DNA from: a bacterium
GTDB lineage: Bacteria; Patescibacteriota; Minisyncoccia; Phycocordibacterales; JAKAEA01
Assembly (NCBI GenBank): GCA_021818465.1
Contig: JAKAEA010000001.1
Location: 235,662 to 299,661 of the forward strand
DNA length: 64,000 bases
Direction of reading: 5' to 3'
Position 1 is the first letter of the stretch. Each line of letters begins with the position of its first letter. A model generated the notes under the pieces. It saw only the letters and a program-made list of their open reading frames with translations. It was not told the DNA's origin and ran no database searches. Positions 1 to 48,807 of this stretch are shown one piece after another. Made by a program: the position numbers and the translations under genes.

Positions 1-594
1 CCTCTTAAGGATGAAGAACTTGCCGCGCGCGTCCAGCAGGGCGACCACGAGGCCTTCGCTGTGCTCATGAATCGATACAGCGGAAAACTCCTTCGCTACG
101 GCGCGCGGCTGCTTCCTCGTGAAGCTAATCTCGGCGATATTATTCAAGATATTTTTATTACGGTGTATCGTAATATGCAGGACTTTGACGCCACCCGTCA
201 GTTTTCGCCGTGGATATACCGCATTGCTCATAATGCATTTGTTGACGTTATTCGCCGTAAACACACAGAACCGCTGTATGTATTTGACTTTGATGCTGTG
301 ATACCACATCCTGTATATCATGATCCTGTGCCACAAGAGAAAGAAGATACTCGTACACGCGTATTACTAGAGAAGGGGCTGGAAAATCTATCGCCGGCAT
401 ATCGCGAAATCATAGATCTGTATTATTTTGAAAATTTCAGTTACCAGCAGATTGCAGACATCTTGCACGTGCCGCTTGGCACGGTTGGTATTCGTTTAGC
501 ACGGGCGCGCGCTGCACTCAAAAAATACATTCCGCATCCTGATGACGCCGATACACCGCCCGAGATGACGCGCACTCATACTCAAAATACATGA
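1..594 (+). CDS. ECF-type RNA polymerase sigma-70 factor (5' end truncated by window start)
   Basis: The reading frame is open from position 1 (LKDEELAARVQQGDHEAFAVLMNRY...), which is the canonical ECF region-2 start. A region-4 HTH is present (YQQIADILHVPLGTVGIRLARARAALKK). The TGA stop overlaps the downstream ATG. Confidence 0.85.
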   Translation, partial: PLKDEELAARVQQGDHEAFAVLMNRYSGKLLRYGARLLPREANLGDIIQDIFITVYRNMQDFDATRQFSPWIYRIAHNAFVDVIRRKHTEPLYVFDFDAVIPHPVYHDPVPQEKEDTRTRVLLEKGLENLSPAYREIIDLYYFENFSYQQIADILHVPLGTVGIRLARARAALKKYIPHPDDADTPPEMTRTHTQNT

Positions 595-1310
595 ACGAAC
601 ATAACGACAACCTCATACTCAAAAAAATTCACGATACTGTTTTGCACCAGGTCGAAACGGGCTCGCTCCGTGTTCATTCACGTCGGTTTTTTATGATTCG
701 TTTTGCCGCTACGGTTGCGGTGGCTGTACTTGCTTTTCTTTTTTCTACACTGGTGATGAGTTTTATATTTTTCAGTATTCACGAAAGTGGTGAGCAGTTT
801 TTACTTGGTTTTGGTGGCGCTGGCGTGCTCACGTTTTTAGAATTATTTCCCTGGGTGGCGTTCGTTGTGGATATCGCCCTCTTGGTACTTTTGGAATGGT
901 TGTTGCAGGGATTTAAACTTGGCTATCGCGTTTCACTCATCGTTATTTTTATCGGTATTTTTGGTGGTAGCGCCGTGCTCGGTTTTCTTATAGATCTGAC
1001 ACCGTTACATAGCACACTTTTAGGACTTGCTAATAAAGGAGAGTTGCCTATTGTCGGAGGAGTATATGAAAGTCTTCGCGATAACCATGCTGCGCAGGGT
1101 GTGTTTCGTGGTATGGTGGTGGCAGTTTCTGAACACAGTATTATCATCGCTCACGAAGACAACGATCGTGATGGTGACGATGGGGTTTGGAATGTGCAGG
1201 TGCCACTAGGTAGTGGGCCGTTCCACGTAGGTGAGCGCGTCTATGTTTTTGGTTTGCTCGCGAGCAGCACCATTGAAGCGCAAGGAATTCAACTTCTCTC
1301 ATCAAACTAG
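591..1310 (+). CDS. membrane protein, putative anti-sigma factor partner of the upstream ECF sigma
   Basis: ATGA overlap with the sigma gene. Several predicted TM helices follow a short cytoplasmic N-terminus. The anti-sigma call comes from genomic context only. Confidence 0.5.
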   Translation: MNEHNDNLILKKIHDTVLHQVETGSLRVHSRRFFMIRFAATVAVAVLAFLFSTLVMSFIFFSIHESGEQFLLGFGGAGVLTFLELFPWVAFVVDIALLVLLEWLLQGFKLGYRVSLIVIFIGIFGGSAVLGFLIDLTPLHSTLLGLANKGELPIVGGVYESLRDNHAAQGVFRGMVVAVSEHSIIIAHEDNDRDGDDGVWNVQVPLGSGPFHVGERVYVFGLLASSTIEAQGIQLLSSN

Positions 1311-1412
1311 TTGTAATAAAAAAAGAAAATAAAAATAAAGTGAAATAAACATGCGTACTGTGCGTACTATAGACGTGTAAGCTTATTTATCTGTAACATC
1401 ACGTTTATTGTT

Positions 1413-1907
1413 ATGAAAAAATATGTTGTTTCAAGTATCGTTGTAGGAGCGATTGTTCTCTACATTCTGTATCAGCACGTGCAAGGACCGAGTGCTATCG
1501 CATTGGCACCAAGCACGCCTGCATCGTCATCATCTAAAAGCACAGCAGCTGCTTCTGGTTCGCAAACAGCGCCATCGCAGAGTTCTTCGTCTCAGACAAC
1601 ACCTAGTGCGCCGACAAGTTTGTATAAAAATGGTACGTATACTGGCGTAACGGCTAATGCTTTCTACGGGCCGATGCAGGTTGCTGCGGTGATACGTGGT
1701 GGTCAACTCGCCAGTGTTAAGGTGTTGCAATATCCACAGAGCCATAGTTATTCACAAATGGTTAATGGGGAAGCCTTGCCCTATTTAAAATCGGAAGCAG
1801 TGCAAGCGCAAAACGCCAACATTAACATTGTTTCGGGGGCGACAGCATCAAGTCAAGCGTTCATGCAATCGCTTTCTTCGGCTCTCTCGCAGGCGACCAA
1901 TGGCTAA
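1413..1907 (+). CDS. secreted FMN-binding domain protein (flavinylation substrate)
   Basis: N-terminal TM/signal, a Ser/Thr/Ala/Pro-rich linker, then an FMN_bind-like domain with a VSGATASS motif that matches the [S/T]GA[S/T] flavinylation site. It lies directly upstream of ApbE. Confidence 0.7.
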   Translation: MKKYVVSSIVVGAIVLYILYQHVQGPSAIALAPSTPASSSSKSTAAASGSQTAPSQSSSSQTTPSAPTSLYKNGTYTGVTANAFYGPMQVAAVIRGGQLASVKVLQYPQSHSYSQMVNGEALPYLKSEAVQAQNANINIVSGATASSQAFMQSLSSALSQATNG

Positions 1908-1913
1908 TACGGT

Positions 1914-2669
1914 ATGAAGCAAACACGAATGCTTATGGGCATGCCTATTACTGTTGAAATCGTGGATGCTATCGCCACCTCAACAGATATAGACAACGTA
2001 TTCGACTACTTCACCTACGTTGATATGAAATTCAGCACGTATAAACCAGAAAGTGAAATCAGTCGTATCAATAGGGGTGAAATAGCCGCGGCGGATTACA
2101 GTGCTGATATGCGCGAGGTGTTCGCACTTTCTGAAGAAACGAAACGTGCCACAAACGGTTACTTTGACATTCGCACCGCTGCTGGTCCTATTGATCCTTC
2201 GGGGCTGGTGAAGGGCTGGGCCATCTATAATGCTGCAAAAATTTTAGAACGTGAAGGTTTTCAAAATTTTTACGTTGAAGCGGGTGGTGATATTCAGGTG
2301 CGTGGCACTACTGCCCAAGGTCAGACTTGGCGTGTTGGTTTACGAAGCCCATTTGAACACGAAAAGATTGTTAAAGTAGTGGCGTTAACTAATGCGGGTA
2401 TTGCGACAAGTGGTACCTACTTGCGTGGTCAGCACATTTACGATCCACACTGCCCCGATGCACCGTTGACCGATGTGGTGAGCCTCAGTGTCATTGGTCC
2501 GAATGTCTATGAGGCAGATCGTTTTGCTACTGCCGCCTTTGCTATGGGTCGGCAGGGTATTGCCTATATTGAACATCTGCATGGTTTTGAGGGATATCAA
2601 ATTGACCACGCTGGTATCGCTACCATGACGAGCGGTTTTGAAAAGTATGTTATTAATTCCACCACATAA
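1914..2669 (+). CDS. apbE: ApbE-family FAD:protein FMN transferase
   Basis: Conserved ApbE blocks (GYFDI, GLVKGWA, EAGGDIQVRG, GIATSGTY). Adjacent to the FMN-binding substrate gene. Confidence 0.8.
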   Translation: MKQTRMLMGMPITVEIVDAIATSTDIDNVFDYFTYVDMKFSTYKPESEISRINRGEIAAADYSADMREVFALSEETKRATNGYFDIRTAAGPIDPSGLVKGWAIYNAAKILEREGFQNFYVEAGGDIQVRGTTAQGQTWRVGLRSPFEHEKIVKVVALTNAGIATSGTYLRGQHIYDPHCPDAPLTDVVSLSVIGPNVYEADRFATAAFAMGRQGIAYIEHLHGFEGYQIDHAGIATMTSGFEKYVINSTT

Positions 2670-2672
2670 ATT

Positions 2673-4211
2673 ATGAATACTCTGCGTACGTATATTGACA
2701 ATATGTTAAATAACATCACGATGTATAAACTCGTGTTGTATGTGCTTATTGGTTTGGTTGCGGTGACGGTACTCCTCGGTATAGTCGGTCTCACGCCATA
2801 TAATCCCATCGCCATAATTTTTTCAGTACTCTTTTTTACTGCTCTGTGTTTAGCTGGAAATGCGCTTTTTGCCTGGGCATTTAGCGTTCCAGCCAATACT
2901 GAATCGGTGTATATCACCGCTCTTATTTTGGCGCTTATTATTTCACCGCCACGCTCGCCAAGCGACAGTTTTTATTTTCCTTTAGCCATTGTTGCTTCGG
3001 TTGTTGCCATGGCTTCAAAATATATTTTTGCAATCAAGCGTAAGCACGTGTTTAACCCAGCCGCGCTCGCGGTGGTGGTTACTGGTTTTACCTTGGGGTT
3101 GCCAGCAAGTTGGTGGGTTGGCACCAAATGGACACTGCCATTCGTTATTGTTGGTGGACTTCTTATTACGAGAAAAATTCGTCGTTTCGATCTCGTACTA
3201 GCGTTCGGTGTTGTAGCTGCGGTAACTATGGCTGCAGCGACATTGAGCAGTCCGTTTGCTATTGTGTACAACTGGGGTGTGGCAATTGTTGATTCACCGA
3301 TTATTTTCTTTGCGACGGTGATGCTCACGGAGCCGTTGACGACACCGCCGACGCGGTGGCTACGGATTATCTACGGTGGTGTTGTGGGGTTTTTGTTTGC
3401 GCCAGCTATCCATATCGGATCGCTCTATACCTCTCCGGAGTTGGCGCTGGTGGCGGGGAACGTGTTTTCGTATCTCGTGAGTCCGAAGGATCGACTCATT
3501 CTGGAGTTGAAAAAAATTCAAAAGGTTGCCAATGACACCTATCATTTTGTTTTCAATACTCCGAAGCCGTTGGCGTTTGTGCCAGGGCAGTATCTTGAGT
3601 GGACGCTTACTCCTAAGGGGGCAGACAGTCGTGGTAATCGGCGCTATTTTACTATCGCGTCATCGCCAACAGAGCGTGAGCTTATGATGGGAGTGAAGTT
3701 TTATCCGAAGCCAAGTAGTTTCAAAAAACAATTAGCAACGATGCGTCCGCGTGACACTATTATTGCATCGCAGCGTGCTGGCGATTTTGTGTTGCCGCAC
3801 AATAAAAGAAAAAAACTTGTGTTTATCGCCGGCGGTATCGGTATCACGCCCTTTCGTAGCATGCTCAAGTTTCTCATTGATCGCGATGAGACTCGCGATA
3901 TCGTCGTCCTTTATTCTAATAAAACCATCGCTGATGTTGCGTACACCGACGTTTTGGAAACTGCACGAGAAAATCTTGGTGTTAGGACGGTGTACACGCT
4001 TACTGACGAGGCGTCTATTCCATCGACGTGGCGCGGACGGCGCGGTTTCATTGATCGAACGACGATTGTTGAAGAGGTGCCAGATTTTACAGAACGAATG
4101 TTCTATATTTCTGGTCCGCAAACGATGGTCGATCATTTTGACGAGGTGTTGCGTGATCTGGGAGTACCACGTCGACACATTAAAAAAGACTTTTTTCCAG
4201 GGTTTGCATAA
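2673..4211 (+). CDS. polytopic membrane oxidoreductase with C-terminal ferredoxin-NADP reductase-like FAD/NAD(P)-binding module
   Basis: About 8 TM helices in the N-terminal ~300 aa. The C-terminal part has an RRYFTIASSP (RxYS FAD-binding) motif and a GGIGITPFRSML (NAD(P) binding) motif. The membrane domain lacks the four His of bis-heme ferric-reductase domains. Confidence 0.7.
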   Translation: MNTLRTYIDNMLNNITMYKLVLYVLIGLVAVTVLLGIVGLTPYNPIAIIFSVLFFTALCLAGNALFAWAFSVPANTESVYITALILALIISPPRSPSDSFYFPLAIVASVVAMASKYIFAIKRKHVFNPAALAVVVTGFTLGLPASWWVGTKWTLPFVIVGGLLITRKIRRFDLVLAFGVVAAVTMAAATLSSPFAIVYNWGVAIVDSPIIFFATVMLTEPLTTPPTRWLRIIYGGVVGFLFAPAIHIGSLYTSPELALVAGNVFSYLVSPKDRLILELKKIQKVANDTYHFVFNTPKPLAFVPGQYLEWTLTPKGADSRGNRRYFTIASSPTERELMMGVKFYPKPSSFKKQLATMRPRDTIIASQRAGDFVLPHNKRKKLVFIAGGIGITPFRSMLKFLIDRDETRDIVVLYSNKTIADVAYTDVLETARENLGVRTVYTLTDEASIPSTWRGRRGFIDRTTIVEEVPDFTERMFYISGPQTMVDHFDEVLRDLGVPRRHIKKDFFPGFA

Positions 4212-4355
4212 CCGTATATCCAAAGCTGTACTGTCGATAGTGTACTCACACATAGCTATCCACTATAGTGACTTAACAAGAGAACGGGACGGGACTACAA
4301 TATGTGCAGGTGGTCTTTGATGAAGGTTCCTTAATGTACACAAAGGAGGTGTTTT

Positions 4356-5033
4356 ATGAAAGGAACTATGACGAGAAAGGGTTGTAATGTGGCACGTGCG
4401 TTGTGCAAGGCAAGTGGTGCAGGTGTTATACCCGCAACGCAGGCCGAGGAAATTCTAGGACGAGGGTACATAGGTGTTGCTGCGGGATGTGCATGTAATT
4501 TTTATTTCAGTCATCATGATCGGGTGTATTTGTGTGTCGTTGCGATGACCGAAGATGAACTCCTGACATGTCAGCAAACACATATACTAGTTGCAGTACC
4601 CGCCGGATCTCTTGTGGAGCATCGACAGATTATGGACACCGTTATTCACTCAAAACAGTCGTTGCATTATCTGTACGAACACGAACATGAAGACGGTTTC
4701 CATGAGCAACAATTTGCAACGGAACGTGGTGAAGCAGAATGGTGGCTCATACGTCGTCAGTTGGTTTCCGAAAAACAAACGCTTCTTAATGGGGAATGTG
4801 CAGTGTCAGCGCGGGCAGCAGATTACAGCATCTTTATGTGTGCGCAGCTTTTGGGGGAACGTTTGTTTTGGCAATGTGAGGCTTGCTGTTGTGATCGTCT
4901 AAAGGACGGTCGACAGGTTGCTCTTGATAATTTTAATCGAACATTCCCGTTCTTTTCATATCATATTCCTAACCAGTCACAATCGAATGTAAGTGGAGTG
5001 ATCGTTGGCCGAAAACTGGAGCTGAAACTTTAA
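4356..5033 (+). CDS. hypothetical Cys-rich protein
   Basis: Strong RBS (AAGGAGG) 7 nt upstream of the ATG. 225-aa ORF with a CEACCCD cysteine cluster. No family recognised. Confidence 0.45.
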   Translation: MKGTMTRKGCNVARALCKASGAGVIPATQAEEILGRGYIGVAAGCACNFYFSHHDRVYLCVVAMTEDELLTCQQTHILVAVPAGSLVEHRQIMDTVIHSKQSLHYLYEHEHEDGFHEQQFATERGEAEWWLIRRQLVSEKQTLLNGECAVSARAADYSIFMCAQLLGERLFWQCEACCCDRLKDGRQVALDNFNRTFPFFSYHIPNQSQSNVSGVIVGRKLELKL

Positions 5034-5141
5034 AGGTAGTATGGGGCTATCAACAACGATAGCTCCTTTTTGTTTTAGTAAGAAACAGATGTACTAAAAC
5101 GTCATTACAAAAGAGGGTTTATTTATTTTTATGTTTGCTTT

Positions 5142-5648
5142 ATGCAAAGAAATACTATTGTATTGCTTATAGTAGCACTTATCGTACTGGTGGGAGCGGG
5201 TGCTTATATAACAGCAGTGTATACGAATCCTAACATGTCGGTGCCCGCTACGGAGGTAGTGTCAAAAACGCAATCGAGTACGACGCACGATACAAACGAT
5301 ACGGTGGCATCAAAAAATTCTCTTGGTGTACTCCCGTCGGAAGGGAAAGGGATATTGCGCGGCGTTGTTATGGTAGCCTCGACGTGCTCAGGGAGCGCAT
5401 CGGTGAATTCTTTATGTACTTCACGACCGTATCCCACAACAATGTATGTATATCCAGGAGCTAGTCAGGTAGCGTCTCCAACTATTATTGCCACCAATAA
5501 TGATGGAGTATTTAACTTGACTCTAGCGGCGGGTACGTATCTGGTAGAAGCGCAAAATAGCCCAAGTGGAAATCCGTCTTGTCCAACGACAACGGTGGAA
5601 ATTGCCGCAGGTGCGACAAAAAATATCACTATGACGTGTACCCAGTAG
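5142..5648 (+). CDS. hypothetical secreted protein with a Thr/Ser-rich linker and a beta-rich domain, possibly CarboxypepD_reg-like
   Basis: N-terminal TM anchor (IVLLIVALIVLVGAGAYI), a low-complexity linker, and a C-terminal domain containing Cys pairs. Confidence 0.5.
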   Translation: MQRNTIVLLIVALIVLVGAGAYITAVYTNPNMSVPATEVVSKTQSSTTHDTNDTVASKNSLGVLPSEGKGILRGVVMVASTCSGSASVNSLCTSRPYPTTMYVYPGASQVASPTIIATNNDGVFNLTLAAGTYLVEAQNSPSGNPSCPTTTVEIAAGATKNITMTCTQ

Positions 5649-9796: not shown

Positions 9797-9882
9797 GTAA
9801 AAAGTATAGCATGTTTGGTCTATTGGTTTTGCTATACTATATATAGTAGTGGTTGATAACTATTGTATTAATTTTTTTTAAA

Positions 9883-10425
9883 ATGGCTCAAAAAATTTTT
9901 ATTGAAGACTCACCGTTTGCAAAGTTTGTTTTTTCCGATACACGCATTACTTGGTTTTGGTTTGTGGTGCGATTGTACGTTGGTTGGCAGTGGCTATCGG
10001 CTGGTTTTGAAAAAATAACGAGCTCGGCTTGGTTTGGTTCGCACGCCGGTAGCGCGCTCACCGGTTTTCTTAATGGTGCCATTGCTCAAACCTCTGGCGC
10101 TCACCCAAACGTGCAGGGGTGGTATGGAGTTTTTTTGCACGTTATCGTACTTTCTCATCCGGTTATCTGGTCAAATATAATTTCTGTCGGCGAATGTGCT
10201 GTGGGCGTCGCGCTTATTATCGGCGTCTTCACTGGTATCGCCGCATTTTTCGGTCTCTTTATGAATCTCAACTATTTATTGGCCGGTACGGTGAGTACGA
10301 ATCCAATTCTTTTTACTCTTGGCATTGGCCTCGTTCTGGCGTGGCGTGTTGCTGGTTGGTGGGGCGTGGATCGCTGGTTGCTTCCTATCCTTGGCACACC
10401 CTGGCAGAAGGTGGAGGTGGTGTAA
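9883..10425 (+). CDS. DoxX-family membrane protein
   Basis: RLYVGWQWLSAGFEKI and four TM helices. The ATG at 9883 is preferred over the upstream TTG at 9853. Confidence 0.6.
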   Translation: MAQKIFIEDSPFAKFVFSDTRITWFWFVVRLYVGWQWLSAGFEKITSSAWFGSHAGSALTGFLNGAIAQTSGAHPNVQGWYGVFLHVIVLSHPVIWSNIISVGECAVGVALIIGVFTGIAAFFGLFMNLNYLLAGTVSTNPILFTLGIGLVLAWRVAGWWGVDRWLLPILGTPWQKVEVV

Positions 10426-13350: not shown

Positions 13351-14008
13351 TATAGTTGTCATAACTGGCGCTGGCCGGGGTTTGGGAAAATCGCTTGTTG
13401 CCGCTTTTACTAATCGTGAAGCACATGTTATTGCTTCTGATATTGATTCACGTCAATACAAAACTGATGTTCGAGATGAGGTTGAAGTAAAAAGATTAGC
13501 TGATGAAATTGTTAAAAAATTTGGTCAAATAGATATTTGGATAAACAATGCCGGTATTTGGTTACCGCGGATGTCAGTTCAAGAATTAGATATGAACCGT
13601 GTTCGGGAGATTTTTAATGTTAATGTCTTCGGTACAATACATGGCACTCGAGCCGCCCTGAAAATTATGGAGCATCAAGGAAAGGGAACTATCGTCAATA
13701 TTGTTTCTACTGCCGCGCTCGTTGGTCGACCGTTCTTTGCAACCTATTCGGCGAGCAAGCATGCTGAAAAAGGTTTTACGGATTCTGTGCGAGAAGAGTT
13801 GAGAGAGCAAGGAAGCAATGTCTCCATTATCGGTATTTATCCCGGTGGTATAAAAACCAACCTTTTTGATGAGAAAAAACCTGATGATTTTGCTAAGTAT
13901 ATGGAGCCAGAATTTGTCGCGGAAGCCATTGTTGCGAACTTAGAAAAGGAAAAGCCGGAACCCGACCTCATTCTTAAACGACCAGGTCAAGATATCAAAT
14001 TTAAATAG
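13316..14008 (+). CDS. short-chain dehydrogenase/reductase (SDR)
   Basis: VVITGAGRGLGKSL (TGxxxGxG), NNAGI, and the YSASK catalytic YxxxK. Confidence 0.8.
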   Translation: MIKKNVKILKNSIVVITGAGRGLGKSLVAAFTNREAHVIASDIDSRQYKTDVRDEVEVKRLADEIVKKFGQIDIWINNAGIWLPRMSVQELDMNRVREIFNVNVFGTIHGTRAALKIMEHQGKGTIVNIVSTAALVGRPFFATYSASKHAEKGFTDSVREELREQGSNVSIIGIYPGGIKTNLFDEKKPDDFAKYMEPEFVAEAIVANLEKEKPEPDLILKRPGQDIKFK

Positions 14009-14093
14009 CTAAAATTTAGTCACACCTTGGACGGTGCATGTACTCTTTTAAAGATGGTAGTATAGGGGTATTAGTAAATTCATTTTTAATACT

Positions 14094-15272
14094 ATGCTTT
14101 CACTTCATGAGATGTTAGAGAAAAAAGATGACGTTGGTGCAAAACCGATATTTTTTGATTTGTCCCAAACTGCCGATCAAAACAAACTCTCCGCACTTTT
14201 TGCTGACAATAAAATCCAACACGTTTCCGATGATTTTGAAGAACAGCACCAAGAATTATTTGCAGTCAGAAATCCGACGATTGTCTATACGGCGGGTTTC
14301 AAAGAAAAATTTAAAAAATATTACGAGGAACTAAAAACTCAAAAGCCTCTTCAGGAACATGGCCATTGGGTCTATTTTCCATGGCTCTCGAAAATTGTTC
14401 ATATTTTAGCTGAAGAAGATTTTTTTATTGTTCGAACTGCACGCAATAAAAATCTCATTAATACCGAGGAGCAAGAAAAATTTCACAATGCCAAAATAGG
14501 TATTGGTGGTTTATCGGTTGGTTCAAGCGTCGCCTACGCTATGACTCTTCAAGGTGGGCCGAAACACGTCAAACTTGCCGATATGGATCGTCTTGCCCTT
14601 TCCAATACGAATCGCATTCTTTCTGGTGTTGATAATCTCGGAATGCTCAAAGTAGAAATGGCCGCTCGTTTCATGTATCAGATTAACCCATATATGGAAA
14701 TAGAACTTTACCCCGACGGCCTGACTCCTGAAAATATTGAAGGGTTTTGCAAAGACTTAGATGTAGTGATTGATGAGCTTGATAATTTATCGGTGAAATT
14801 TTTGATTCGTGAACAAGCCAAAAAATATAAAATACCAGTCGTTATGGCTGCTGATAATGGTGACAATGCTGTAGTAGACGTTGAACGGTATGATTTAGAG
14901 CCGGATATGCCGTACTTTCATGGTCGTATGGGTGATGTCTCATACGACATGCTCACAAAATTAGATAAATTCGGTATCGGCAAAATGATCACCAAGCACG
15001 TTGGTCCGGAAAATGTGACCGAACGAATGCAGCAATCGCTCATGGAGATGGGGAAGACTATTGTCTCTTGGCCCCAACTTGGCGGCGCGGCTTTGATTAA
15101 TGGCGCGGCTGTGGCTTATTGTGTGCGAAAAATTCTGAACAGTCAGCCACTGGAGAAAAATCGCGCCCTTGTGTATTTGGACGAAAAACTTATTCCGACC
15201 TGGAACGAGCCGACCGAAATAAAAAAACGTGCCGCTATCGCCGATGGTTTTCGGAAAATTTTTGGGTTGTAA
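14094..15272 (+). CDS. E1-like ThiF/MoeB-family adenylyltransferase with ~130-aa N-terminal extension
   Basis: Rossmann motif GIGGLSVGS and the E1 signature DMDRLALSNTNR (DxDxxxxSNLNR). There are no CxxC zinc motifs. The N-terminal extension is unassigned. Confidence 0.7.
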   Translation: MLSLHEMLEKKDDVGAKPIFFDLSQTADQNKLSALFADNKIQHVSDDFEEQHQELFAVRNPTIVYTAGFKEKFKKYYEELKTQKPLQEHGHWVYFPWLSKIVHILAEEDFFIVRTARNKNLINTEEQEKFHNAKIGIGGLSVGSSVAYAMTLQGGPKHVKLADMDRLALSNTNRILSGVDNLGMLKVEMAARFMYQINPYMEIELYPDGLTPENIEGFCKDLDVVIDELDNLSVKFLIREQAKKYKIPVVMAADNGDNAVVDVERYDLEPDMPYFHGRMGDVSYDMLTKLDKFGIGKMITKHVGPENVTERMQQSLMEMGKTIVSWPQLGGAALINGAAVAYCVRKILNSQPLEKNRALVYLDEKLIPTWNEPTEIKKRAAIADGFRKIFGL

Positions 15273-15288
15273 TTATTTTAGTTTAATT

Positions 15289-16092
15289 CTATTTATTATT
15301 TTTTTGAGAATTTTTACCCAGTCTCTTAGCTTCCTCCCAGGCGAGATCAAAAACACTCTTCATAACGTCTGCCATTTCTTTACTTTCAACACTTATCGCT
15401 ATACCCCCGTGGTCGTGAGAAGCATAGGCAATTTTGTTATCGTAAATGACTAAATCGGCGGATATTTTGTATTTGTCTGGTGGTATGAGTATTGGTTTGT
15501 CAAGATTTTTAGTGTTATATCTAAGTAAATTTCGATTAAACTCATTATCGGGATGGATACCATGCATTTTGATATTTAATTGGTATCTTTTTTGTAAATA
15601 TTGCGGCATATAGTCACCCATGATTTCTCTAAGATTTTCTGTGGCGGAAATCACCCGCATCAATTTTTCTTTTGTTTTAAGAGTCTCTTCAAAAGCGCTA
15701 ATTAAACCTTCTTTTCCTTCAAATACTCGAACTTTCGGTTTTTGTTTAGTATCTTTATGTAAGGCTTTTAGTTCTGGTAATATTTTCTCAATTTTATTTA
15801 AAATATTTTCTTGCTTATCCACCATATTTTCGGCGGTATGAAGTAAAATATCAGGAGAAGTGGCGATATACTGTCGAACATCCTTATCGTCTGAGATACT
15901 TACTAATCCTTTTTTTATAAGAGATTCAAGTACGACATAAATTGTGCTTCTATTGATTTCGGTATGTCGAGAGATTTCTTGCACGGGAGCAATTTCAAGT
16001 TCAAGCAACGCTACGTAAATACGTGCCTCTTTTTCATTAAGACCAAATTCTATAAGAGTTTTAGTAAGCATAGTGTTAATGGGTGTTAACAA
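15289..16092 (-). CDS. TrmB-family transcriptional regulator
   Basis: N-terminal wHTH (LIEFGLNEKEARIYVALLELEIAPVQEISRHTEINRSTIYVVLESLIKKGLV). Divergently oriented from the small peptide gene. Confidence 0.7.
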   Translation of the reverse strand: MLTPINTMLTKTLIEFGLNEKEARIYVALLELEIAPVQEISRHTEINRSTIYVVLESLIKKGLVSISDDKDVRQYIATSPDILLHTAENMVDKQENILNKIEKILPELKALHKDTKQKPKVRVFEGKEGLISAFEETLKTKEKLMRVISATENLREIMGDYMPQYLQKRYQLNIKMHGIHPDNEFNRNLLRYNTKNLDKPILIPPDKYKISADLVIYDNKIAYASHDHGGIAISVESKEMADVMKSVFDLAWEEAKRLGKNSQKNNK

Positions 16093-16143
16093 TATTGTTA
16101 TAATTTACGTTTCGAAACTATTTTTGTTGTTATAGTATAACAA
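16088..16143. promoter_or_regulatory. two palindromic operator-like sites sharing a TTGTTATA half-site in the divergent intergenic region
   Basis: AACAATATTGTT at 16088-16099 (extending to TTGTTATAA) and TTGTTATAgTATAACAA at 16127-16143 are perfect inverted repeats. They lie between the TrmB regulator and the peptide gene. Confidence 0.4.
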
Positions 16144-16345
16144 CACAATAGAAATAATACAAGCTACTAGCGAATTAGTGCGGTGATAATTTTTTTTAGC
16201 AGTAGTTGTTTATAGGGAAAAAGTATTGTCTCGTGATTGTTATATGTTTACAACATTTTTGAAGGGTTTATTTTTTAGTTAGATAAAAAGTTGGAGTGCG
16301 TGATTTGTATATCAACTCATTGAAAAAAGAAAGGAGGTGATTATC

Positions 16346-16450
16346 ATGGCAAACCAACCAACAGGCCCCCATGGGGGTTCGTCGGGTGGCACTAGTACCG
16401 GCAACAATGGTTCGGGCGGTGGCTCTCACGGTGGTCCTCGAGGAGGATAA
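16346..16450 (+). CDS. 34-aa Gly/Ser-rich small peptide (MANQPTGPHGGSSGGTSTGNNGSGGGSHGGPRGG)
   Basis: Not in the ORF track (<60 aa). A perfect RBS (AAAGGAGGTG) lies 7 nt upstream of the ATG, and a rho-independent terminator follows immediately. No Cys. Ser/Thr sit in a Gly-rich context. Confidence 0.55.
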   Translation: MANQPTGPHGGSSGGTSTGNNGSGGGSHGGPRGG

Positions 16451-16471
16451 TTTCTCGTCGGACTATAGTAG

Positions 16472-16505
16472 AATAGGGTGAGAGTTTTCTCACCCTATTT
16501 CTAAT
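16472..16505 (+). terminator. rho-independent terminator after the small peptide gene
   Basis: AGGGTGAGA-gttt-TCTCACCCT, a 9-bp perfect stem followed by a T-rich tract. Confidence 0.7.
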
Positions 16506-16519
16506 TTATATAAAAATAT

Positions 16520-16789
16520 ATGTCTAATAAAAATAATATAAAATATCCTGTTGTTTTTATTATCTACAGAGATATCGTTCTCTGGGAGAGTCAGGTTAAG
16601 ATTAAAAGTGGTTTTCCTGTACATATTTTTCACGCAGTTGGTTTTTTAATTGAAGATAATACTGATAATTATGTTATTGCCCGAGAGATTGTGACAAATC
16701 AAAATGACGATCTCCGAGGGGCAATGACTATTCCCAAAGAAACAATCTTGCATTTTGAAAAGATCAAAGAAAATAAAATAATTTCTTAA
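16520..16789 (+). CDS. hypothetical protein (89 aa)
   Basis: ORF inside the AT-rich island with no recognisable motifs. Confidence 0.35.
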   Translation: MSNKNNIKYPVVFIIYRDIVLWESQVKIKSGFPVHIFHAVGFLIEDNTDNYVIAREIVTNQNDDLRGAMTIPKETILHFEKIKENKIIS

Positions 16790-16811
16790 AGATTAGCATA
16801 TTGTTATTTTT

Positions 16812-17309
16812 ATGAAATTAAAATCTACTCTCACCAATCGTTCAGGCAAAATATTGTCTGTTATTTATTCGGAAAAAGATCCTCTCATTGGCTTAGAAGG
16901 GAAAATTTTGCAAGGCGTTCACGCTTTTTGTTTTTGGGGAAATCACATGGTATTGGTGCATCATCCTAAAAGTGGGTGGATGCCACCGGGTGGTGGCATT
17001 GAACGTAATGAAAATTATATAGAAGCGACGTTACGAGAAGTTAAAGAGGAAACAAATATGAAAGTCACGTATCTAAAAACAATCGGTTTTCAGGATACAT
17101 ATGAGCCGGGGAAAGTGGTCCGACAGGTGCGGAATTTTTGTTTAGTTGAACCGTGTGGAGATTTTACATCAGATCCCGATGGTGAAATTATGGAAATTAA
17201 ACTTATTAGACCGGAAGACTATAAACAATATTTTGATTGGGGCGAAATTGGCGATAGAATTATGACGCAAGCGTTGAAATATAAGAGTAAAATAGCCGGG
17301 ATTTTATAA
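16812..17309 (+). CDS. NUDIX hydrolase
   Basis: Nudix box GGGIERNENYIEATLREVKEETN (Gx5Ex7REUxEExGU). Confidence 0.8.
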   Translation: MKLKSTLTNRSGKILSVIYSEKDPLIGLEGKILQGVHAFCFWGNHMVLVHHPKSGWMPPGGGIERNENYIEATLREVKEETNMKVTYLKTIGFQDTYEPGKVVRQVRNFCLVEPCGDFTSDPDGEIMEIKLIRPEDYKQYFDWGEIGDRIMTQALKYKSKIAGIL

Positions 17310-17381
17310 ACTTCTTATATTATTTGGTCTATCTAAGCTTATGAGATATAATCTTAATATCGAAAGTTATTGTGTTTTTCT

Positions 17382-18416
17382 ATGAAAGAAAACTATAAAG
17401 CTTGGCAAATAGATCTGAACTCTTTCAAAGAGCTTAAAACTGAAGTTGAGAGATTAAAATTTTTCTTAAAATTTGCCGTATTAGCTCCTTCGAGTCATAA
17501 TTCACAACCTTGGTTATTTTCAGTTTCTGAAAATAGTATTCAAGTTTATCGAGCAAAGTTTCGTTCTCTTCCTATCGCTGATGTAAATAATCGTCAACTT
17601 TTTTTAAGTATTGGTTGTGCTATTGAACATATTGTTATTGCTGCTCAGTATTATGGATATAGCACTAATGTAGAATATAAGGACGATTTAATTAACCCCA
17701 ATCTTGCTGCTATTATCACGTTTAGAAAAGAAGAAAAAAAAATTCAAACAATCGAAAGTTTACGTTATATCCAAGCTATTCTAAAAAGAAAGACAAATCG
17801 TGGTAAATACAAAAAAGAAAAAATTTTAGAAAATTTATTGGAAAAAATAGAAAAGTTAAAAACTCCCAATCTTAATATATATGTGATTAGTGATACTGAA
17901 AAAATATCTAGACTTGCCGATATTGCCGTTCAAGCTTCTATTGAATCAATGGTTGACGATAATTTTCGTTTAGAACTCTCTCATCATCTTAAACATAATT
18001 TAACAAAATCTAAAATTGGCATGCCTGGTTTTAGTTTGGGTTTGCCGACGCTGGTTTCATTTTTATTACCACATTTAATGAAACAATTTAATTTGGAACG
18101 AGTAGCTCAAAAACAAAACGAGAAATTATTTAAAAAACATACTCCATATATAGTTATATTAACGACTAACGGTGATTCACGAAAAGATTGGCTAGAAGCT
18201 GGCCGAGTATTTGAACAGATTACCCTTACTCTAACGCACGATAATATTAGCGTGTCTCCTTGGGGTGCGCCAATTCAAATAGGAGAATTTTACAGAAATA
18301 TTCAGAAAATTCTTCACACTAGTTTTCGGCCACAGATGTTTTTTCGAGTAGGGTATGCTCAAAAAAAAGCAAGATTTAGTCCTAGATTAATAGTTGAAGA
18401 TGTTCTGGATAAATAG
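17382..18416 (+). CDS. nitroreductase-family protein, Acg/tandem-nitroreductase-like
   Basis: APSSHNSQPW motif and a ~340-aa length consistent with the double nitroreductase fold. The ATG at 17382 is preferred over the TTG at 17370. Confidence 0.6.
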   Translation: MKENYKAWQIDLNSFKELKTEVERLKFFLKFAVLAPSSHNSQPWLFSVSENSIQVYRAKFRSLPIADVNNRQLFLSIGCAIEHIVIAAQYYGYSTNVEYKDDLINPNLAAIITFRKEEKKIQTIESLRYIQAILKRKTNRGKYKKEKILENLLEKIEKLKTPNLNIYVISDTEKISRLADIAVQASIESMVDDNFRLELSHHLKHNLTKSKIGMPGFSLGLPTLVSFLLPHLMKQFNLERVAQKQNEKLFKKHTPYIVILTTNGDSRKDWLEAGRVFEQITLTLTHDNISVSPWGAPIQIGEFYRNIQKILHTSFRPQMFFRVGYAQKKARFSPRLIVEDVLDK

Positions 18417-23261: not shown

Positions 23262-23807
23262 TTGTCTATGACCACAAAAGTCGTTTCAATAAAATCAGAA
23301 ACCGACTTTTTAGCAGCTTACGACTGCTATAGTGACGCAGTCTTTCGCTACAGTCTCTTGCGCATTCGAGATAAAGAGTTAGCAAAGGATATTACCCAGG
23401 ATACGTTCTTGCAGACCTGGAAATATTTTCAAGAAAAGGGTCCTATCTCAAATGTTAAGCCCTTTTTGTATACTGTAGCAATACGTTTGATTATTAATCA
23501 AACGTATAAGCATAAGGAACAGTCCCTTGAACGGTTAGCGGAAGAAATAGACTTTGAACCGGTGGATGGCACTACAACAGACGTGGCGGCCAGCCGGTCT
23601 GATCTTTTAGAAGGAGAAGAAGCACTTGCACACATTGAGCGGCTCAATTCGAGCTATCGGGATGTGCTCTACCTACGCTTTGTGGAGGGTTTAAGCCCTA
23701 AAGAAATTGCTCAGGTAATTGGAGAAAGTCGCAACCTCGTCGGAGTGCGGCTCAACCGGGCAATTAAAGCGCTCCGAAAATATCTTCGGGGCGGTCGTCA
23801 TATATAA
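23262..23807 (+). CDS. ECF-type RNA polymerase sigma factor
   Basis: Region 2 (DITQDTFLQTWKYF) and region 4 (YRDVLYLRFVEGLSPKEIAQVIGESRNLVGVRLNRAIKALRK). Confidence 0.8.
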   Translation: MSMTTKVVSIKSETDFLAAYDCYSDAVFRYSLLRIRDKELAKDITQDTFLQTWKYFQEKGPISNVKPFLYTVAIRLIINQTYKHKEQSLERLAEEIDFEPVDGTTTDVAASRSDLLEGEEALAHIERLNSSYRDVLYLRFVEGLSPKEIAQVIGESRNLVGVRLNRAIKALRKYLRGGRHI

Positions 23808-27974: not shown

Positions 27975-28589
27975 ATGAAGTCATTACTTCAACCAGTGGA
28001 TGAAAACGTACAAGAGTTGCGTGATGCGGAAATCCTAACTCTTTCGGAAAAAAAACCAGCGGTATTTCAAGTCTTGGTTGAACGTTGGCGTCCACGATTA
28101 TTTGCTCGGGCGGCTCGCGTTATGGGTAATGCCGATGATGCGGAGGATGTGGTACAAGAAACTTTGGTGCGCGTCTATAAATATGCCCATCGCTATCAGG
28201 AACAACACGAACATAGTTTTGCAAGTTGGGTCTATACTATTTTCTATAATGTGGCAAAAACCTACCAACGTCGCCGTCACGATCGGTCGGTGTTTGTGAA
28301 TGCGAGCCAACTCGTTGCCAATGAAGAAATGGCTGAATTTCCCGATGTCGCAGAGCAAGATTTTTTTAGGAAATTTTTAGATGTTGACCAAGTTGCTTCC
28401 GTATTAACGCGATTACCGGCGACCGTAGCCCGATTATTGAAACTTTATATACTTGAGGGTCGCAGTTATACTGAATTAGCTCAATCAGAAGGTGTATCGG
28501 TGGGAACCATTCGTGTGCGTTTGCATAGAGCGCGACAATCATTTCAAGACACATTGCATCGTGATAAAGAAGAAATATCATTACGTTAA
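27975..28589 (+). CDS. ECF-type RNA polymerase sigma factor
   Basis: Region 2 (DVVQETLVRVYKYAHRY) and region 4 (YTELAQSEGVSVGTIRVRLHRARQ). Confidence 0.8.
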   Translation: MKSLLQPVDENVQELRDAEILTLSEKKPAVFQVLVERWRPRLFARAARVMGNADDAEDVVQETLVRVYKYAHRYQEQHEHSFASWVYTIFYNVAKTYQRRRHDRSVFVNASQLVANEEMAEFPDVAEQDFFRKFLDVDQVASVLTRLPATVARLLKLYILEGRSYTELAQSEGVSVGTIRVRLHRARQSFQDTLHRDKEEISLR

Positions 28590-28602
28590 TGTATGAAAAT
28601 GT

Positions 28603-29022
28603 ATGAATATGAGTAAACAAACATCGTTGACGTGTGATGTTTTTACCCGTCGGGTGATGGGGCGTATTTATGTAGTCTATTTTTTACGTAAACTCAGTCG
28701 ACCAGTTTTTATAGAGAGTTTTTTGCTTGGTCTATGCACCTTAATTATTTCACTTATGGTTTCTCTTGGGCATGTTATCAATAATGCGGAACGCGTACCC
28801 GATGCGCCAATGATGCTGCCACTATTTCGCTTTTTTTGGTCGGCGTTTTTAGATACCAATGATGTTGTTAAAATTTTAAGTATTGCTCTTGTGTTAACGG
28901 CTATTATGTTTGTCTACACTATTAGTTTCTCTTTGTTTAAACGTTGTACGCGTATATCTGGCCGTCTTCTCGGTCAGATTTTTTTTCGGCACACAACAGC
29001 ACCGCATCCAGCTATTAATTAA
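28603..29022 (+). CDS. membrane protein, putative anti-sigma factor
   Basis: Immediately downstream of the ECF sigma. TM helices are present. The anti-sigma call comes from context only. Confidence 0.45.
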   Translation: MNMSKQTSLTCDVFTRRVMGRIYVVYFLRKLSRPVFIESFLLGLCTLIISLMVSLGHVINNAERVPDAPMMLPLFRFFWSAFLDTNDVVKILSIALVLTAIMFVYTISFSLFKRCTRISGRLLGQIFFRHTTAPHPAIN

Positions 29023-46669: not shown

Positions 46670-48058
46670 GTGACGCAACCTAAGCCGTCTGGTATTGAAA
46701 CGGCAACAGCTGAGCCGACAACGATCACCAGTATTGTCAGTGTGACGGGCAATGTTAAACCAGTAGCACAAGCAAATTTTGGTTTTCAAATCGGCGGTGT
46801 TGTTAAAAGCATTCCCGTCACCGTGGGAGAATATGTGAAAGCCGGTGACCTTATCGCTAGTTTGGATGATCAAACTATTAAAGCTTCACTCCTTTCAGCT
46901 CAAGCTGCACTCCAAGAAGCGCAAGCGAATCTTGCTACGAATCAAACCAATACGGATATCAACTACGCTAATGCAAAGCGTAGTGCTGTTGTTGCTGCTA
47001 TTGATGCGTATAATAAAGTACAAAATGCTGTAAATAGCTATTCCAATTCACTTTTTCAGAGTTCGCAGTCGGCAAATCCAACCTTACTTATTCCAACTCA
47101 GACCCAAGCCCAAGAGCGCAGTATAGAAAATGCGCAAGTTGGCGTTATCGTACTGTTGCAAAAATGGAACGCTGAAGTAAGTACGGCTAGTACAAGTGTT
47201 GCAGAGACACTTATTCTCGATTCGGAAGGATACATGAACACGGTTACCTCGTTTATGAATAATCTGGTGGCTGCAGCAAATGCCTATGCTCAAACCAGTG
47301 GTCCCACACAAACAAATGCAGCGGCATATGTCGCTACAGCTAATGCGGCCAAAGCAGCAGTGTCGTCAGCAATGAGTGAAATAACAACAGCAGAAAACAA
47401 TCTAGTTACTACTCGTCCGCAAAGCACTGCGGCACTGGTGGCGCAAATCGCTCAAGCCCAAGCCAATGTTGCTAATTGGCAAGCCCAAGATAATGAATCG
47501 CGCGTTACCGCGCCGTTTGACGGTATTATTACTCAAATTACTCCGCAAGTCGGTGATTTAATTGCTGCCAACACGATTCAATTTTCTGAAATGTCCAATA
47601 ATATGTATAAAGTGACGGTTGACGTACCAGAAACAAACATTGTTGGGATGGCAGTTGGTGATCCGGCTAATATTACGCTTGATGCGTTTGGCGATACGGT
47701 TAATTTTCCAGCTACCGTAACCAAAATCGATCCTGCCGACACGCTTGTTGAAGGTGTGCCAACGTACAAAGTGACGCTGCATTTTAATCAGCCCGATAGT
47801 CGCATTCGCTCGGGTATGACCGCAAATATTGATATCACTACAGACTCTATTCATAATGTTTTAGCTATTCCTTTTCGGTCTGTTTTACAAGGAGGAGGTT
47901 CCACGACGGTGCGTGTACTGAATTCTAATGGGACCACGTGGAGCTATGTGCCCATCATCACTGGTCTTAAAGGCTCTGATGGTATGGTGCAGATTGTACG
48001 TGGTATTGCCACAGGCACGCAGGTTGTAACATACGCTCCTGGTGATAATGCTTCTTAA
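46670..48058 (+). CDS. efflux transporter periplasmic adaptor subunit (MacA/HlyD-like)
   Basis: Biotinyl/lipoyl-like hairpin (VKAGDLIASLDD), a coiled-coil region, and a beta-barrel. The first canonical start is the GTG at 46670. The membrane anchor is encoded in frame upstream (see findings). Confidence 0.7.
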   Translation: MTQPKPSGIETATAEPTTITSIVSVTGNVKPVAQANFGFQIGGVVKSIPVTVGEYVKAGDLIASLDDQTIKASLLSAQAALQEAQANLATNQTNTDINYANAKRSAVVAAIDAYNKVQNAVNSYSNSLFQSSQSANPTLLIPTQTQAQERSIENAQVGVIVLLQKWNAEVSTASTSVAETLILDSEGYMNTVTSFMNNLVAAANAYAQTSGPTQTNAAAYVATANAAKAAVSSAMSEITTAENNLVTTRPQSTAALVAQIAQAQANVANWQAQDNESRVTAPFDGIITQITPQVGDLIAANTIQFSEMSNNMYKVTVDVPETNIVGMAVGDPANITLDAFGDTVNFPATVTKIDPADTLVEGVPTYKVTLHFNQPDSRIRSGMTANIDITTDSIHNVLAIPFRSVLQGGGSTTVRVLNSNGTTWSYVPIITGLKGSDGMVQIVRGIATGTQVVTYAPGDNAS

Positions 48059-48066
48059 AATTACGT

Positions 48067-48789
48067 ATGAATGTTATTGAAGTCGAACACGTGAGTAAAA
48101 CCTATTCTGATGGTGGCGAAACTACGACGGTGGCGTTGCGCGATGTAAGTTTTAATGTGCGAGAAGGAGAATTTCTGGCCATTATGGGGCCTTCTGGTAG
48201 TGGTAAATCAACCTTGCTGCACCTGTTAGGGTTGCTGGATATTTCAACAGCTGGTCAGTATCGTTTTGATGGCAAGAATGTTGAAATGTACAGTCGTGAT
48301 GAACAAGCTTATATTCGTAATGCAAAAATGGGTTTCGTATTTCAAGCTTTTAATTTATTGCCGCGTACGACGGTTTTGGAAAATGTAAAATTGCCCCTCG
48401 CATATTCCCAAGTTCCGGAAGCAAAATGGAATACGATGGCTCGTCAGGCCGTAGAAGCGGTTGGTTTGGGACATCGGGAGCAACATCAAACGAGTGAGCT
48501 TTCTGGTGGTGAACGTCAACGCGTTGCTATTGCGCGCGCGCTGGTTAATAATCCTCAAGTTATTTTTGCCGATGAACCGACAGGAAATCTTGATTCAAAG
48601 TCTGGTAAACAAGTGATGAGTATTATTCAAAAGCTTAATGAAGAACAGGGGAGAACTATTGTGCTCATTACTCACGAAACAGCAACGGCTGAGCACGCCG
48701 AGCGAGTCATTCGTCTTAAGGACGGTGTTATTGAGCGTGATGAAAAAGTTCTCCATCGCTTACGACCAGATGATGAGTATGTTAAATAA
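48067..48789 (+). CDS. ABC transporter ATP-binding protein (MacB/LolD-type)
   Basis: Walker A GPSGSGKST, signature LSGGERQRV, and Walker B IFADEPTGNLD. Confidence 0.9.
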   Translation: MNVIEVEHVSKTYSDGGETTTVALRDVSFNVREGEFLAIMGPSGSGKSTLLHLLGLLDISTAGQYRFDGKNVEMYSRDEQAYIRNAKMGFVFQAFNLLPRTTVLENVKLPLAYSQVPEAKWNTMARQAVEAVGLGHREQHQTSELSGGERQRVAIARALVNNPQVIFADEPTGNLDSKSGKQVMSIIQKLNEEQGRTIVLITHETATAEHAERVIRLKDGVIERDEKVLHRLRPDDEYVK

Positions 48790-48807
48790 CATTTTCTTAT
48801 AATTTTT

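Follow-up and report, generated by a model that had tools for sequence, protein, structure and literature searches.

The stretch analyzed here, 64,000 nucleotides of the patescibacterial contig JAKAEA010000001.1 (hereafter, the window), carries three consecutive genes at positions 1413-4211 of its + strand, which encode an FMN_bind protein, an ApbE-family flavin transferase, and a protein of 512 residues where a membrane domain is fused to a ferredoxin-reductase-like (FNR) module. The evidence makes it likely that this trio specifies a two-subunit transmembrane electron-transfer complex of the NQR/RNF-like type together with its dedicated maturation enzyme. The trio seems to be an ordinary new example of a class that is already catalogued and experimentally untouched, except that its ApbE is apparently on the wrong side of the membrane. 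The window was traced to a 540-kb contig of the metagenome-assembled genome GCA_027341405.1 (the source contig), whose genes and nearest homologues indicate Patescibacteria.

The three open reading frames (ORFs) are real and lie where the original prediction had placed them. They are separated by 6 nt (FMN_bind/ApbE) and 3 nt (ApbE/512-residue protein), with no terminator-like site in either gap, and their products and domains are as follows:

1413..1907, + strand: FMN_bind protein (NqrC/RnfG-like subunit), 164 residues; PF04205 E=5e-7, above the gathering score
1914..2669, + strand: ApbE-family FAD:protein FMN transferase, 251 residues; PF02424 E=1e-41
2673..4211, + strand: membrane/FNR fusion protein, 512 residues; NqrB/RnfD-like domain plus ferredoxin-reductase-like module
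2673..3488, + strand: NqrB/RnfD-like membrane domain of about 10 helices, residues 1-272 of the fusion protein
3504..4211, + strand: ferredoxin-reductase-like module of the fusion protein; FAD-binding barrel (residues 278-364), NAD(P)H-binding domain (384-489), and aromatic tail DFFPGFA

A scan of one genome per species provided 80 related loci (81 with the source segment) from Patescibacteria, Chloroflexota (Dictyobacter, Ktedonospora), Rhizobiales (Mesorhizobium, Kaistia), Actinomycetota (Agreia, Arthrobacter, and others), and Spirochaetota. According to tblastn with the window proteins, the order FMN_bind-ApbE-reductase is collinear in 43/80 of these loci, from at least five phyla, and because the gene order recurs in this way the trio is not a chance adjacency. 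Clustering of the ORFs places FMN_bind in 51/81 and ApbE in 50/81 loci, adding a second group with a more divergent ApbE. Moreover, two ApbE homologues located on large contigs from outside the candidate phyla radiation (CPR), when used as starting points, led to the same trio.

The fusion protein and its FMN_bind partner

The membrane domain of the fusion protein is NqrB/RnfD-like, a conclusion that draws on Pfam matches across the family, a structure-profile search, hhalign, and a fold search. Against PF03116 (NQR2_RnfD_RnfE), the window protein scores 26.2 bits, the gathering cut-off being 27.7, and about 40% of its close homologues (P0001-P0120) likewise have no precomputed PF03116 annotation or fall slightly under the gathering score. 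The family is matched individually by 51 of 52 homologues sharing 55-76% identity, with a best E=1.5e-11. When a profile of the membrane domain alone was compared with solved structures, the single match was RnfD of Azotobacter vinelandii (8ahx_D, E=2.2e-5), and hhalign pairs the domain with E. coli RsxD at 93.7% probability. Since a Foldseek search with the full-length model was dominated by the FNR half, the membrane domain was also modeled separately by AlphaFold (pLDDT 78.8). With this model, RnfD and NqrB account for all of the top 15 Foldseek matches (query TM-scores, 0.57-0.69), and urea transporters come next in the list, far behind.

In the models, the domain has about 10 helices instead of the approximately eight initially claimed. 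The transmembrane path had been described as unclear and possibly novel; the domain is, however, of the known NqrB/RnfD-like type, which is a redox family and not one with a non-redox function, and a class with precisely this fusion was described in 2021. On the other hand, the statement that the domain is missing the four-histidine set of bis-heme ferric reductases was right, only H125 being conserved family-wide. A ferric reductase of the NOX/FRE type would use two hemes of the membrane domain as carriers, and it could be invoked from the weak matches of 13/52 homologues to PF08030 (ferric-reductase NAD-binding) and from a Streptococcus NOX retrieved by Foldseek with the full-length model. 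Nonetheless, PF01794 (Ferric_reduct) is not matched, four conserved histidines are lacking, and the membrane domain alone matches only the RnfD/NqrB fold, which leaves a heme-based path with a negligible probability.

The domain contains two positively charged loops, KRKH at residues 122-125 and RKIRR at 167-171, and an invariant ASWW loop (W147/W148). For its orientation the positive-inside rule was used. Because of the positively charged loops and of the NAD(P)H-using module that follows, the C terminus is predicted to be cytoplasmic and the ASWW loop to lie outside.

For the second half of the protein, the original prediction of a FAD/NAD(P)H module fused to the membrane domain is borne out by two Pfam families that pass their cut-offs, NAD_binding_1 (PF00175) with 57.3 bits against 22 and FAD_binding_6 (PF00970) with 22.1 bits against 21.1. 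Of the two sequence motifs named at that time, GGIGITPFRS is found at residues 387-396, whereas a literal RxYS is absent, its equivalent being the FAD-binding motif R-Y-F-T within RRYFTIASS (residues 323-331). The nearest solved relatives by profile are the FAD/NAD domains of NqrF (E=1.8e-16). Also, the full-length model (pLDDT 86.9, pTM 0.80) retrieves flavohemoglobin reductase, NqrF, and bacterial NOX dehydrogenase modules in Foldseek. No iron-sulfur domain is found in the 512-residue protein.

The FMN_bind partner carries the VSGATASS sequence attributed to it, at residues 140-147, so that the flavinylation motif is S141-G-A-T144 and the codon of Thr144 occupies nt 1842-1844. The protein is arranged as an anchor (residues 4-20), a linker rich in Ser, Thr, Ala, and Pro (approximately 26-70), and an FMN_bind domain (75-161), the only one detected by Pfam. 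This domain aligns with the crystallized FMN-binding domain 8p2a, motif on motif (E=4e-11). At the N terminus, MKK precedes a hydrophobic stretch of 17 residues with a mean hydropathy of 2.24. Judged from hydropathy and charge, this segment is predicted to be a signal anchor or a signal peptide, without a lipobox, in agreement with the secreted protein first proposed. In most orthologues a positively charged flank stands ahead of the hydrophobic segment, and the type of N terminus follows the lineage, being an N-in anchor in most, signal-peptide-like in Rhizobiales, and a lipobox in Agreia. The motif [ST]G[AS][ST] is present about 22 residues from the C terminus in 46/52 orthologues.

The same motif is found in 0/77 orthologues of the membrane domain, a division of labor between the two subunits. 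In E. coli RsxD, a hydrophilic loop some 80 residues long joins the NPFNPAM motif to the GGVWLLWQKAIRW helix, and the threonine that bears the covalent FMN (SQAT187) belongs to this loop. In the window protein, the corresponding motifs, HVFNPAA and GGLLITRKIRRF, are only about 30 residues apart. When the two proteins are aligned with affine gaps, the best-scoring solution is collinear and leaves Thr187 opposite a gap. MAFFT and another gap setting move the N-terminal half, pairing Thr187 with the conserved Ser115, and in this register three hydrophobic helices (mean hydropathy 0.95) stand opposite the hydrophilic RsxD loop (0.10). The deleted-loop register is favored because of its higher score, the hydropathy mismatch of the alternative, and a fold search that covers nearly all of RnfD. 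This suggests that the covalent-FMN loop of NqrB/RnfD has been deleted in the window protein, with a register that is not fully certain by sequence alone because the Pfam RnfD profile matches only the C-terminal 40%, approximately, of the domain. Ser115, in the context AMASKY, was also considered as a cryptic flavinylation site equivalent to Thr187 of RsxD. It was rejected for its lower score and its mismatch in hydropathy and is kept as a low-probability rival.

From these identities, a path for the electrons can be proposed. NAD(P)H would reduce the FAD of the cytoplasmic FNR module, and the electrons would then cross the membrane through the flavin site or sites of the fused NqrB/RnfD-like domain, a step that, by homology and according to the published model, would run the FMN-to-riboflavin leg of Na+-NQR backwards. 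They would next reach an FMN that ApbE would have attached covalently to Thr144 of the membrane-anchored FMN_bind subunit. This flavin would substitute for the covalent FMN lost from the RnfD-like domain, and it would probably dock at the outward-facing invariant ASWW loop. Finally, the tethered flavin would reduce an extracytoplasmic acceptor, the likeliest being a metal ion, for instance Fe(III), that the cell would then take up. For bacteria that have tiny genomes and lack a respiratory chain, such an outward path driven by NAD(P)H could serve metal acquisition or redox balance at the cell surface. The logic of the original prediction, in which electrons of NAD(P)H traverse the membrane and end on an extracytoplasmic flavin, is compatible with all the results, and it matches the simple unidirectional transfer proposed in two surveys (PMC8238504, PMC10979944).

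The path could also be coupled to ions, either because the module pumps Na+ or H+ during NAD(P)H oxidation or because an ion gradient drives the flow, and this would be compatible with the electron route described above. Coupling is conceivable because NqrB and RnfD are in the ion-translocating core of NQR and RNF. The fold of the membrane domain matches both proteins of these Na+-pumping complexes, and several of its polar or charged residues are invariant (N63, N75, E77, S78, K116, N128, E220, E256, and N263). However, neither the window nor the source segment encodes RnfA/E or NqrD/E, since tblastn with RsxA/B/C/E/G of E. coli gives nothing better than E=0.48 there, and no other Rnf/Nqr Pfam family appears among the annotated neighbors. 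The same two surveys, moreover, propose a transfer that is simple and unidirectional (PMC8238504, PMC10979944). We therefore regard ion coupling as an unlikely property of the module.

ApbE and its missing leader

As had been predicted, the gene downstream of FMN_bind encodes an ApbE. The protein aligns with the Salmonella and E. coli ApbE structures and conserves the motifs of the catalytic core (GIATSGTY and EADRFAT regions), having lost an internal segment of about 55 residues relative to the Salmonella enzyme. Judging by its fold and motifs as read from sequence, it is a minimal 251-residue form of ApbE. This size is shared by its relatives, since 120/120 of the top ApbE homologues are 239-268 residues long.

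No signal peptide or lipobox is present in the window ApbE, whose N terminus (MKQTRMLMGMPITVE) leads directly into the ApbE fold. An alternative upstream start cannot supply a leader, since the frame is closed by a TAA 6 nt ahead of the ATG. Among orthologous ApbE ORFs, 0/50 have a hydrophobic N terminus, a count obtained with a simple ORF caller that over-extends genes in high-GC actinobacterial loci, of which only Agreia was checked by hand. In this case, the ApbE of the cultured Agreia pratensis has no leader, although its partner is a lipoprotein. Stop-codon readthrough, which would fuse FMN_bind to ApbE and carry the latter outside, was considered as well. All three ORFs share a frame in the window, but this is not conserved, FMN_bind and ApbE being in the same frame in 9/43 loci and ApbE and the reductase in 5/43, and readthrough was rejected.

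Classical ApbEs act outside the cytoplasm, and to our knowledge every studied ApbE system with an exported target performs flavinylation outside the cell. The two surveys (PMC8238504, PMC10979944) make no comment on an ApbE that has no leader although its substrate is exported. Cytosolic ApbEs that serve cytosolic targets are known, and in the cytoplasm ApbE is able to modify a tag of seven residues (PMC12052999).

A tentative explanation, which we hold to be possible rather than probable, is that the ApbE dedicated to NQR/RNF-like modules does reside in the cytoplasm and that the exported FMN_bind protein is flavinylated before or during its export. This is chemically plausible in view of such cytoplasmic tagging, and it would need a secretion channel able to pass a chain that carries FMN. 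An unrecognized export route for ApbE, or a second target facing the cytoplasm, would be equally allowed. If flavinylation does precede export, a cytoplasmic ApbE would represent an undescribed maturation route for extracytoplasmic covalent flavoproteins, one where FAD export is not needed. The pairing of a leaderless ApbE with an exported substrate bears on how extracytoplasmic flavoproteins are made, and the module is present in the cultured Agreia, Mesorhizobium, and Ktedonobacteria.

A different way to accommodate the leaderless ApbE, found in every locus examined, would be to place the whole module on the cytoplasmic face. ApbE would then flavinylate inside, with FMN_bind or the cryptic Ser115 site remaining in, and the product would be a membrane-bound NAD(P)H:flavin or NAD(P)H:quinone reductase. 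The pairing of RsxD Thr187 with Ser115 of the invariant AMASKY under two alignment settings and the known cytosolic ApbEs with cytosolic targets (PMC12052999) would be in line with this. However, the FMN_bind protein has an N-in anchor, positive N-flanks, and a long Pro/Ala/Ser-rich linker, with a lipobox in Agreia. Furthermore, the Ser115 register mismatches hydropathy (0.95 versus 0.10) and fits poorly with the near-complete RnfD fold coverage, and AMAS matches the ApbE motif poorly. A module confined to the cytoplasmic face is, then, very improbable.

Regulation and neighboring genes

The following features lie upstream of the trio, the last one being given in coordinates of the source segment, L001:

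1..594, + strand: ECF-type sigma-70 gene, about 3 codons being cut at the 5' end of the window; Pfam Sigma70_r2 and Sigma70_r4_2, NCBIfam sigma70-ECF E=7e-28
591..1310, + strand: multi-pass membrane protein of 239 residues; 4-nt overlap with the stop of the sigma ORF
1341..1366, + strand: SigW-type ECF promoter-like motif TGAAAT-N16-CGTA; 47 nt upstream of the FMN_bind start, within a gap of 102 bp
L001 6606-7301: ZIP gene on the source contig; ends 19 nt before the ECF sigma gene

The sigma gene is complete on the source contig, with 200 codons and a start 9 nt before the window, and its best specific NCBIfam matches are SigW models, under their cut-offs. The 239-residue membrane protein has no Pfam or NCBIfam family and is a putative anti-sigma factor. 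The ECF sigma factor is a probable regulator of the trio, outside its conserved core. A sigma homologue adjoins the trio only in L035 and L010, and only in L035 is it paired with a homologue of the membrane protein.

The motif TGAAAY-N16/17-CGTA has a single match in the 64 kb on both strands, where 0.93 would be expected over the whole window, and a looser form, [TG]GAAA[CT]-N15-18-CGT[AC], stands ahead of the trio in 3/50 loci (the window, L035, and L013) against approximately 0.75 expected. The SigW-type consensus was applied after the sequence had been seen, which makes the motif a lead and not a result. In this genome, the trio is probably transcribed as an operon from an ECF-sigma promoter.

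Two further ECF-type sigma-like ORFs were noticed by eye in the window, at 23262-23807 and 27975-29022, the second being followed by a small membrane-protein ORF; three such genes would be unusually dense for a small genome. In L084, a metagenome-assembled genome labeled Udaeobacter, the trio stands between an upstream gene for a DUF1775 protein (YcnI-like, copper-binding) and an ECF sigma gene directly downstream, which repeats both the metal theme and the ECF theme of the window, with a sigma gene whose position is unrelated to that in the window:

L084 3184-3849: DUF1775 gene upstream of the trio
L084 7300-7878: ECF sigma gene downstream of the trio

Few other partners are conserved across the loci, the commonest being a histidine kinase (19 loci) and a response regulator (18 loci); in 14 and 11 loci, respectively, these genes lie no more than 3 kb from that of the reductase. 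Parts of MacB-type ABC exporters also recur near the trio in other loci. In the window, three consecutive genes at 46670-50049, 42 kb from the trio, look by eye like a MacA/MacB-type exporter (periplasmic adaptor, ATPase, and FtsX-type permease).

A gene for NRAMP, VIT1, or ZIP is located within 3 kb of the reductase gene in 7/81 loci (L001, L010, L046, L048, L025, L027, and L043). NRAMP is directly downstream in three loci and VIT1 occurs in three, whereas on the source contig the ZIP gene is two genes upstream and may be co-transcribed with the ECF sigma gene. The recurrence of these transporters, with the YcnI-like DUF1775 in L084, hints at a metal acceptor. It agrees with the link to iron assimilation previously drawn from six clusters that contain VIT1 (PMC8238504).

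A different kind of neighbor is found in some Patescibacteria loci, where the RnfD/FNR fusion has no adjoining FMN_bind/ApbE and genes for anchored cupredoxins are present instead:

L066 4618-5486: cupredoxin and second small anchored ORF
L033 10778-11218: cupredoxin neighbor
L054 7002-7490: cupredoxin neighbor
L061 9705-10190: cupredoxin neighbor

In L066, these are two small anchored ORFs directly upstream on the same strand, the first being a cupredoxin by Pfam and the second having no family. In such loci, the same membrane reductase may serve a copper-protein partner.

Other genes of the window complete the picture of the neighborhood. Directly downstream of the trio, at 4356-5033, a putative gene encodes a cysteine-rich protein of 225 residues with no family. 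A good sigma-70-like promoter match precedes it (4273-4301), the strongest terminator-like hairpin of the region follows it (5043-5066), and none of the 80 related loci contains a homologue. At 5142-5648 there is a gene for an anchored, probably extracytoplasmic protein of 168 residues with a weak beta-sandwich match (CarboxypepD_reg). Its AAGAT sequence, 15 residues from the C terminus, loosely resembles the flavinylation motif, and this is probably due to chance because the protein has no homologue in the 80 related loci. A gene for a DoxD/DoxX-family membrane protein lies at 9853-10425, 6 kb downstream of the trio. The name of this family derives from a subunit of a quinone-linked oxidoreductase, and most of its members have no known function; its presence is no evidence for quinones in the genome. 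Finally, the stretch 14001-18000 has a G+C content of 0.33-0.38, against approximately 0.44 elsewhere, and may be acquired DNA. A gene of the nitroreductase family (17370-18416) is situated at its edge.

Weight of the evidence and relation to known systems

Several points weigh against the assignment of the trio to an outward-directed NQR/RNF-like complex with a metal as acceptor. The PF03116 score of the window protein itself is under the Pfam gathering threshold, and its sequence alignment with RnfD covers just the C-terminal 40% or so of the membrane domain. The dedicated ApbE has no export signal, at odds with flavinylation outside the cell. Metal transporters are near a minority of the loci, two-component regulators being the commonest neighbors, and in some members of the family cupredoxin genes replace FMN_bind/ApbE, so the acceptor may vary. 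Also, no experimental study of an NQR/RNF-like system was found in the literature searched. What the analysis shows is who the domains are related to, that the order of the genes and the motifs are conserved, and which topology is predicted; the cofactors, the direction of flow, the acceptor, and the regulation are what we infer.

Extracellular electron transfer (EET) in Listeria, proposed at first as an analogue, involves Ndh2, a quinone, EetA/EetB, and PplA, a lipoprotein with two FMN_bind domains, and its FmnB is a secreted lipoprotein. If the trio worked in this way, its electrons would pass through the quinone pool. The window system shares with that of Listeria monocytogenes (Ndh2, EetA/EetB, PplA, and FmnA/FmnB) a surface-tethered FMN_bind carrier that is flavinylated by an ApbE-family enzyme, and the NCBIfam model of PplA (NF041941) is weakly matched. 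Nevertheless, this match reaches 17.9 bits where the cut-off is 325, and there is one FMN_bind domain instead of two. The input and the membrane step are unrelated, being a fused FNR/RnfD-like protein here and Ndh2 plus quinone there; nothing like Ndh2, EetA/EetB, or quinone-biosynthesis genes is found among the annotated neighbors; and FmnB is secreted, whereas the window ApbE is leaderless. The Listeria parts differ to such an extent that the analogy does not hold, and a Listeria-type EET route is highly improbable for the trio.

With regard to ApbE, the cytosolic enzyme from Klebsiella pneumoniae (PMC12052999) resembles that of the window in having no signal peptide. However, its substrate is a cytosolic, soluble fumarate reductase, whereas here the only substrate bearing the motif is predicted to be exported.

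The trio shares homologous parts with Na+-NQR and RNF. The membrane domain corresponds to NqrB/RnfD, the FNR module to the FAD/NAD part of NqrF, and the partner to NqrC/RnfG, with maturation by ApbE in common. Unlike Na+-NQR (NqrA-F) and RNF (RnfABCDGE), the window system would consist of two subunits only, without NqrA/D/E or RnfA/B/C/E and without an iron-sulfur domain, and the covalent-FMN loop of NqrB/RnfD is apparently deleted. Moreover, the proposed flow of electrons runs in a single direction, to the outside, and not in a loop coupled to ion pumping.

The closest likeness is with the NQR/RNF-like class itself, which Méheust et al. (2021, eLife; PMC8238504) defined by a protein that fuses PF03116 to PF00175 and is encoded within a cluster of flavinylation genes. 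By sequence criteria, the trio belongs to this class, given its PF03116-type homology, the C-terminal PF00175, the adjacent FMN_bind and ApbE genes, and a flavinylation motif only in the partner. The fusion of an NqrB/RnfD-like domain with PF00175, the NqrC/RnfG-like FMN_bind partner, and the adjoining ApbE are all shared (PMC8238504, PMC10979944), as is the loss of the flavinylation site from the RnfD-like domain. For the Ktedonobacter complex, modeled by AlphaFold-multimer, Huang et al. (2024; PMC10979944) described an RnfD-like subunit without its flavinylation site and suggested that the covalent flavin of the partner reaches the vacated flavin pocket. The host range reported for the class, CPR bacteria and Actinobacteria, is shared as well, and the loci studied here include Dictyobacter and Ktedonospora, relatives of the modeled Ktedonobacter. 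No architectural difference is found; peculiar to the lineage of the window are the ECF-sigma/anti-sigma genes and the ZIP neighbor.

The window copy, being slightly under the PF03116 threshold, would be missed by a strict screen. In the first survey, 127 NQR/RNF-like clusters were reported, mainly from Actinobacteria and CPR bacteria (PMC8238504). In comparison, clustering at 50% identity gives 769 groups of proteins with E<=1e-30, and a relative is present in at least 427 species genomes, which points to a system much commoner than first reported. Since many copies fall slightly below the PF03116 threshold, screens based on it undercount the system, especially in the CPR, and this undercount may help to explain the apparent rarity of flavinylation in these bacteria.

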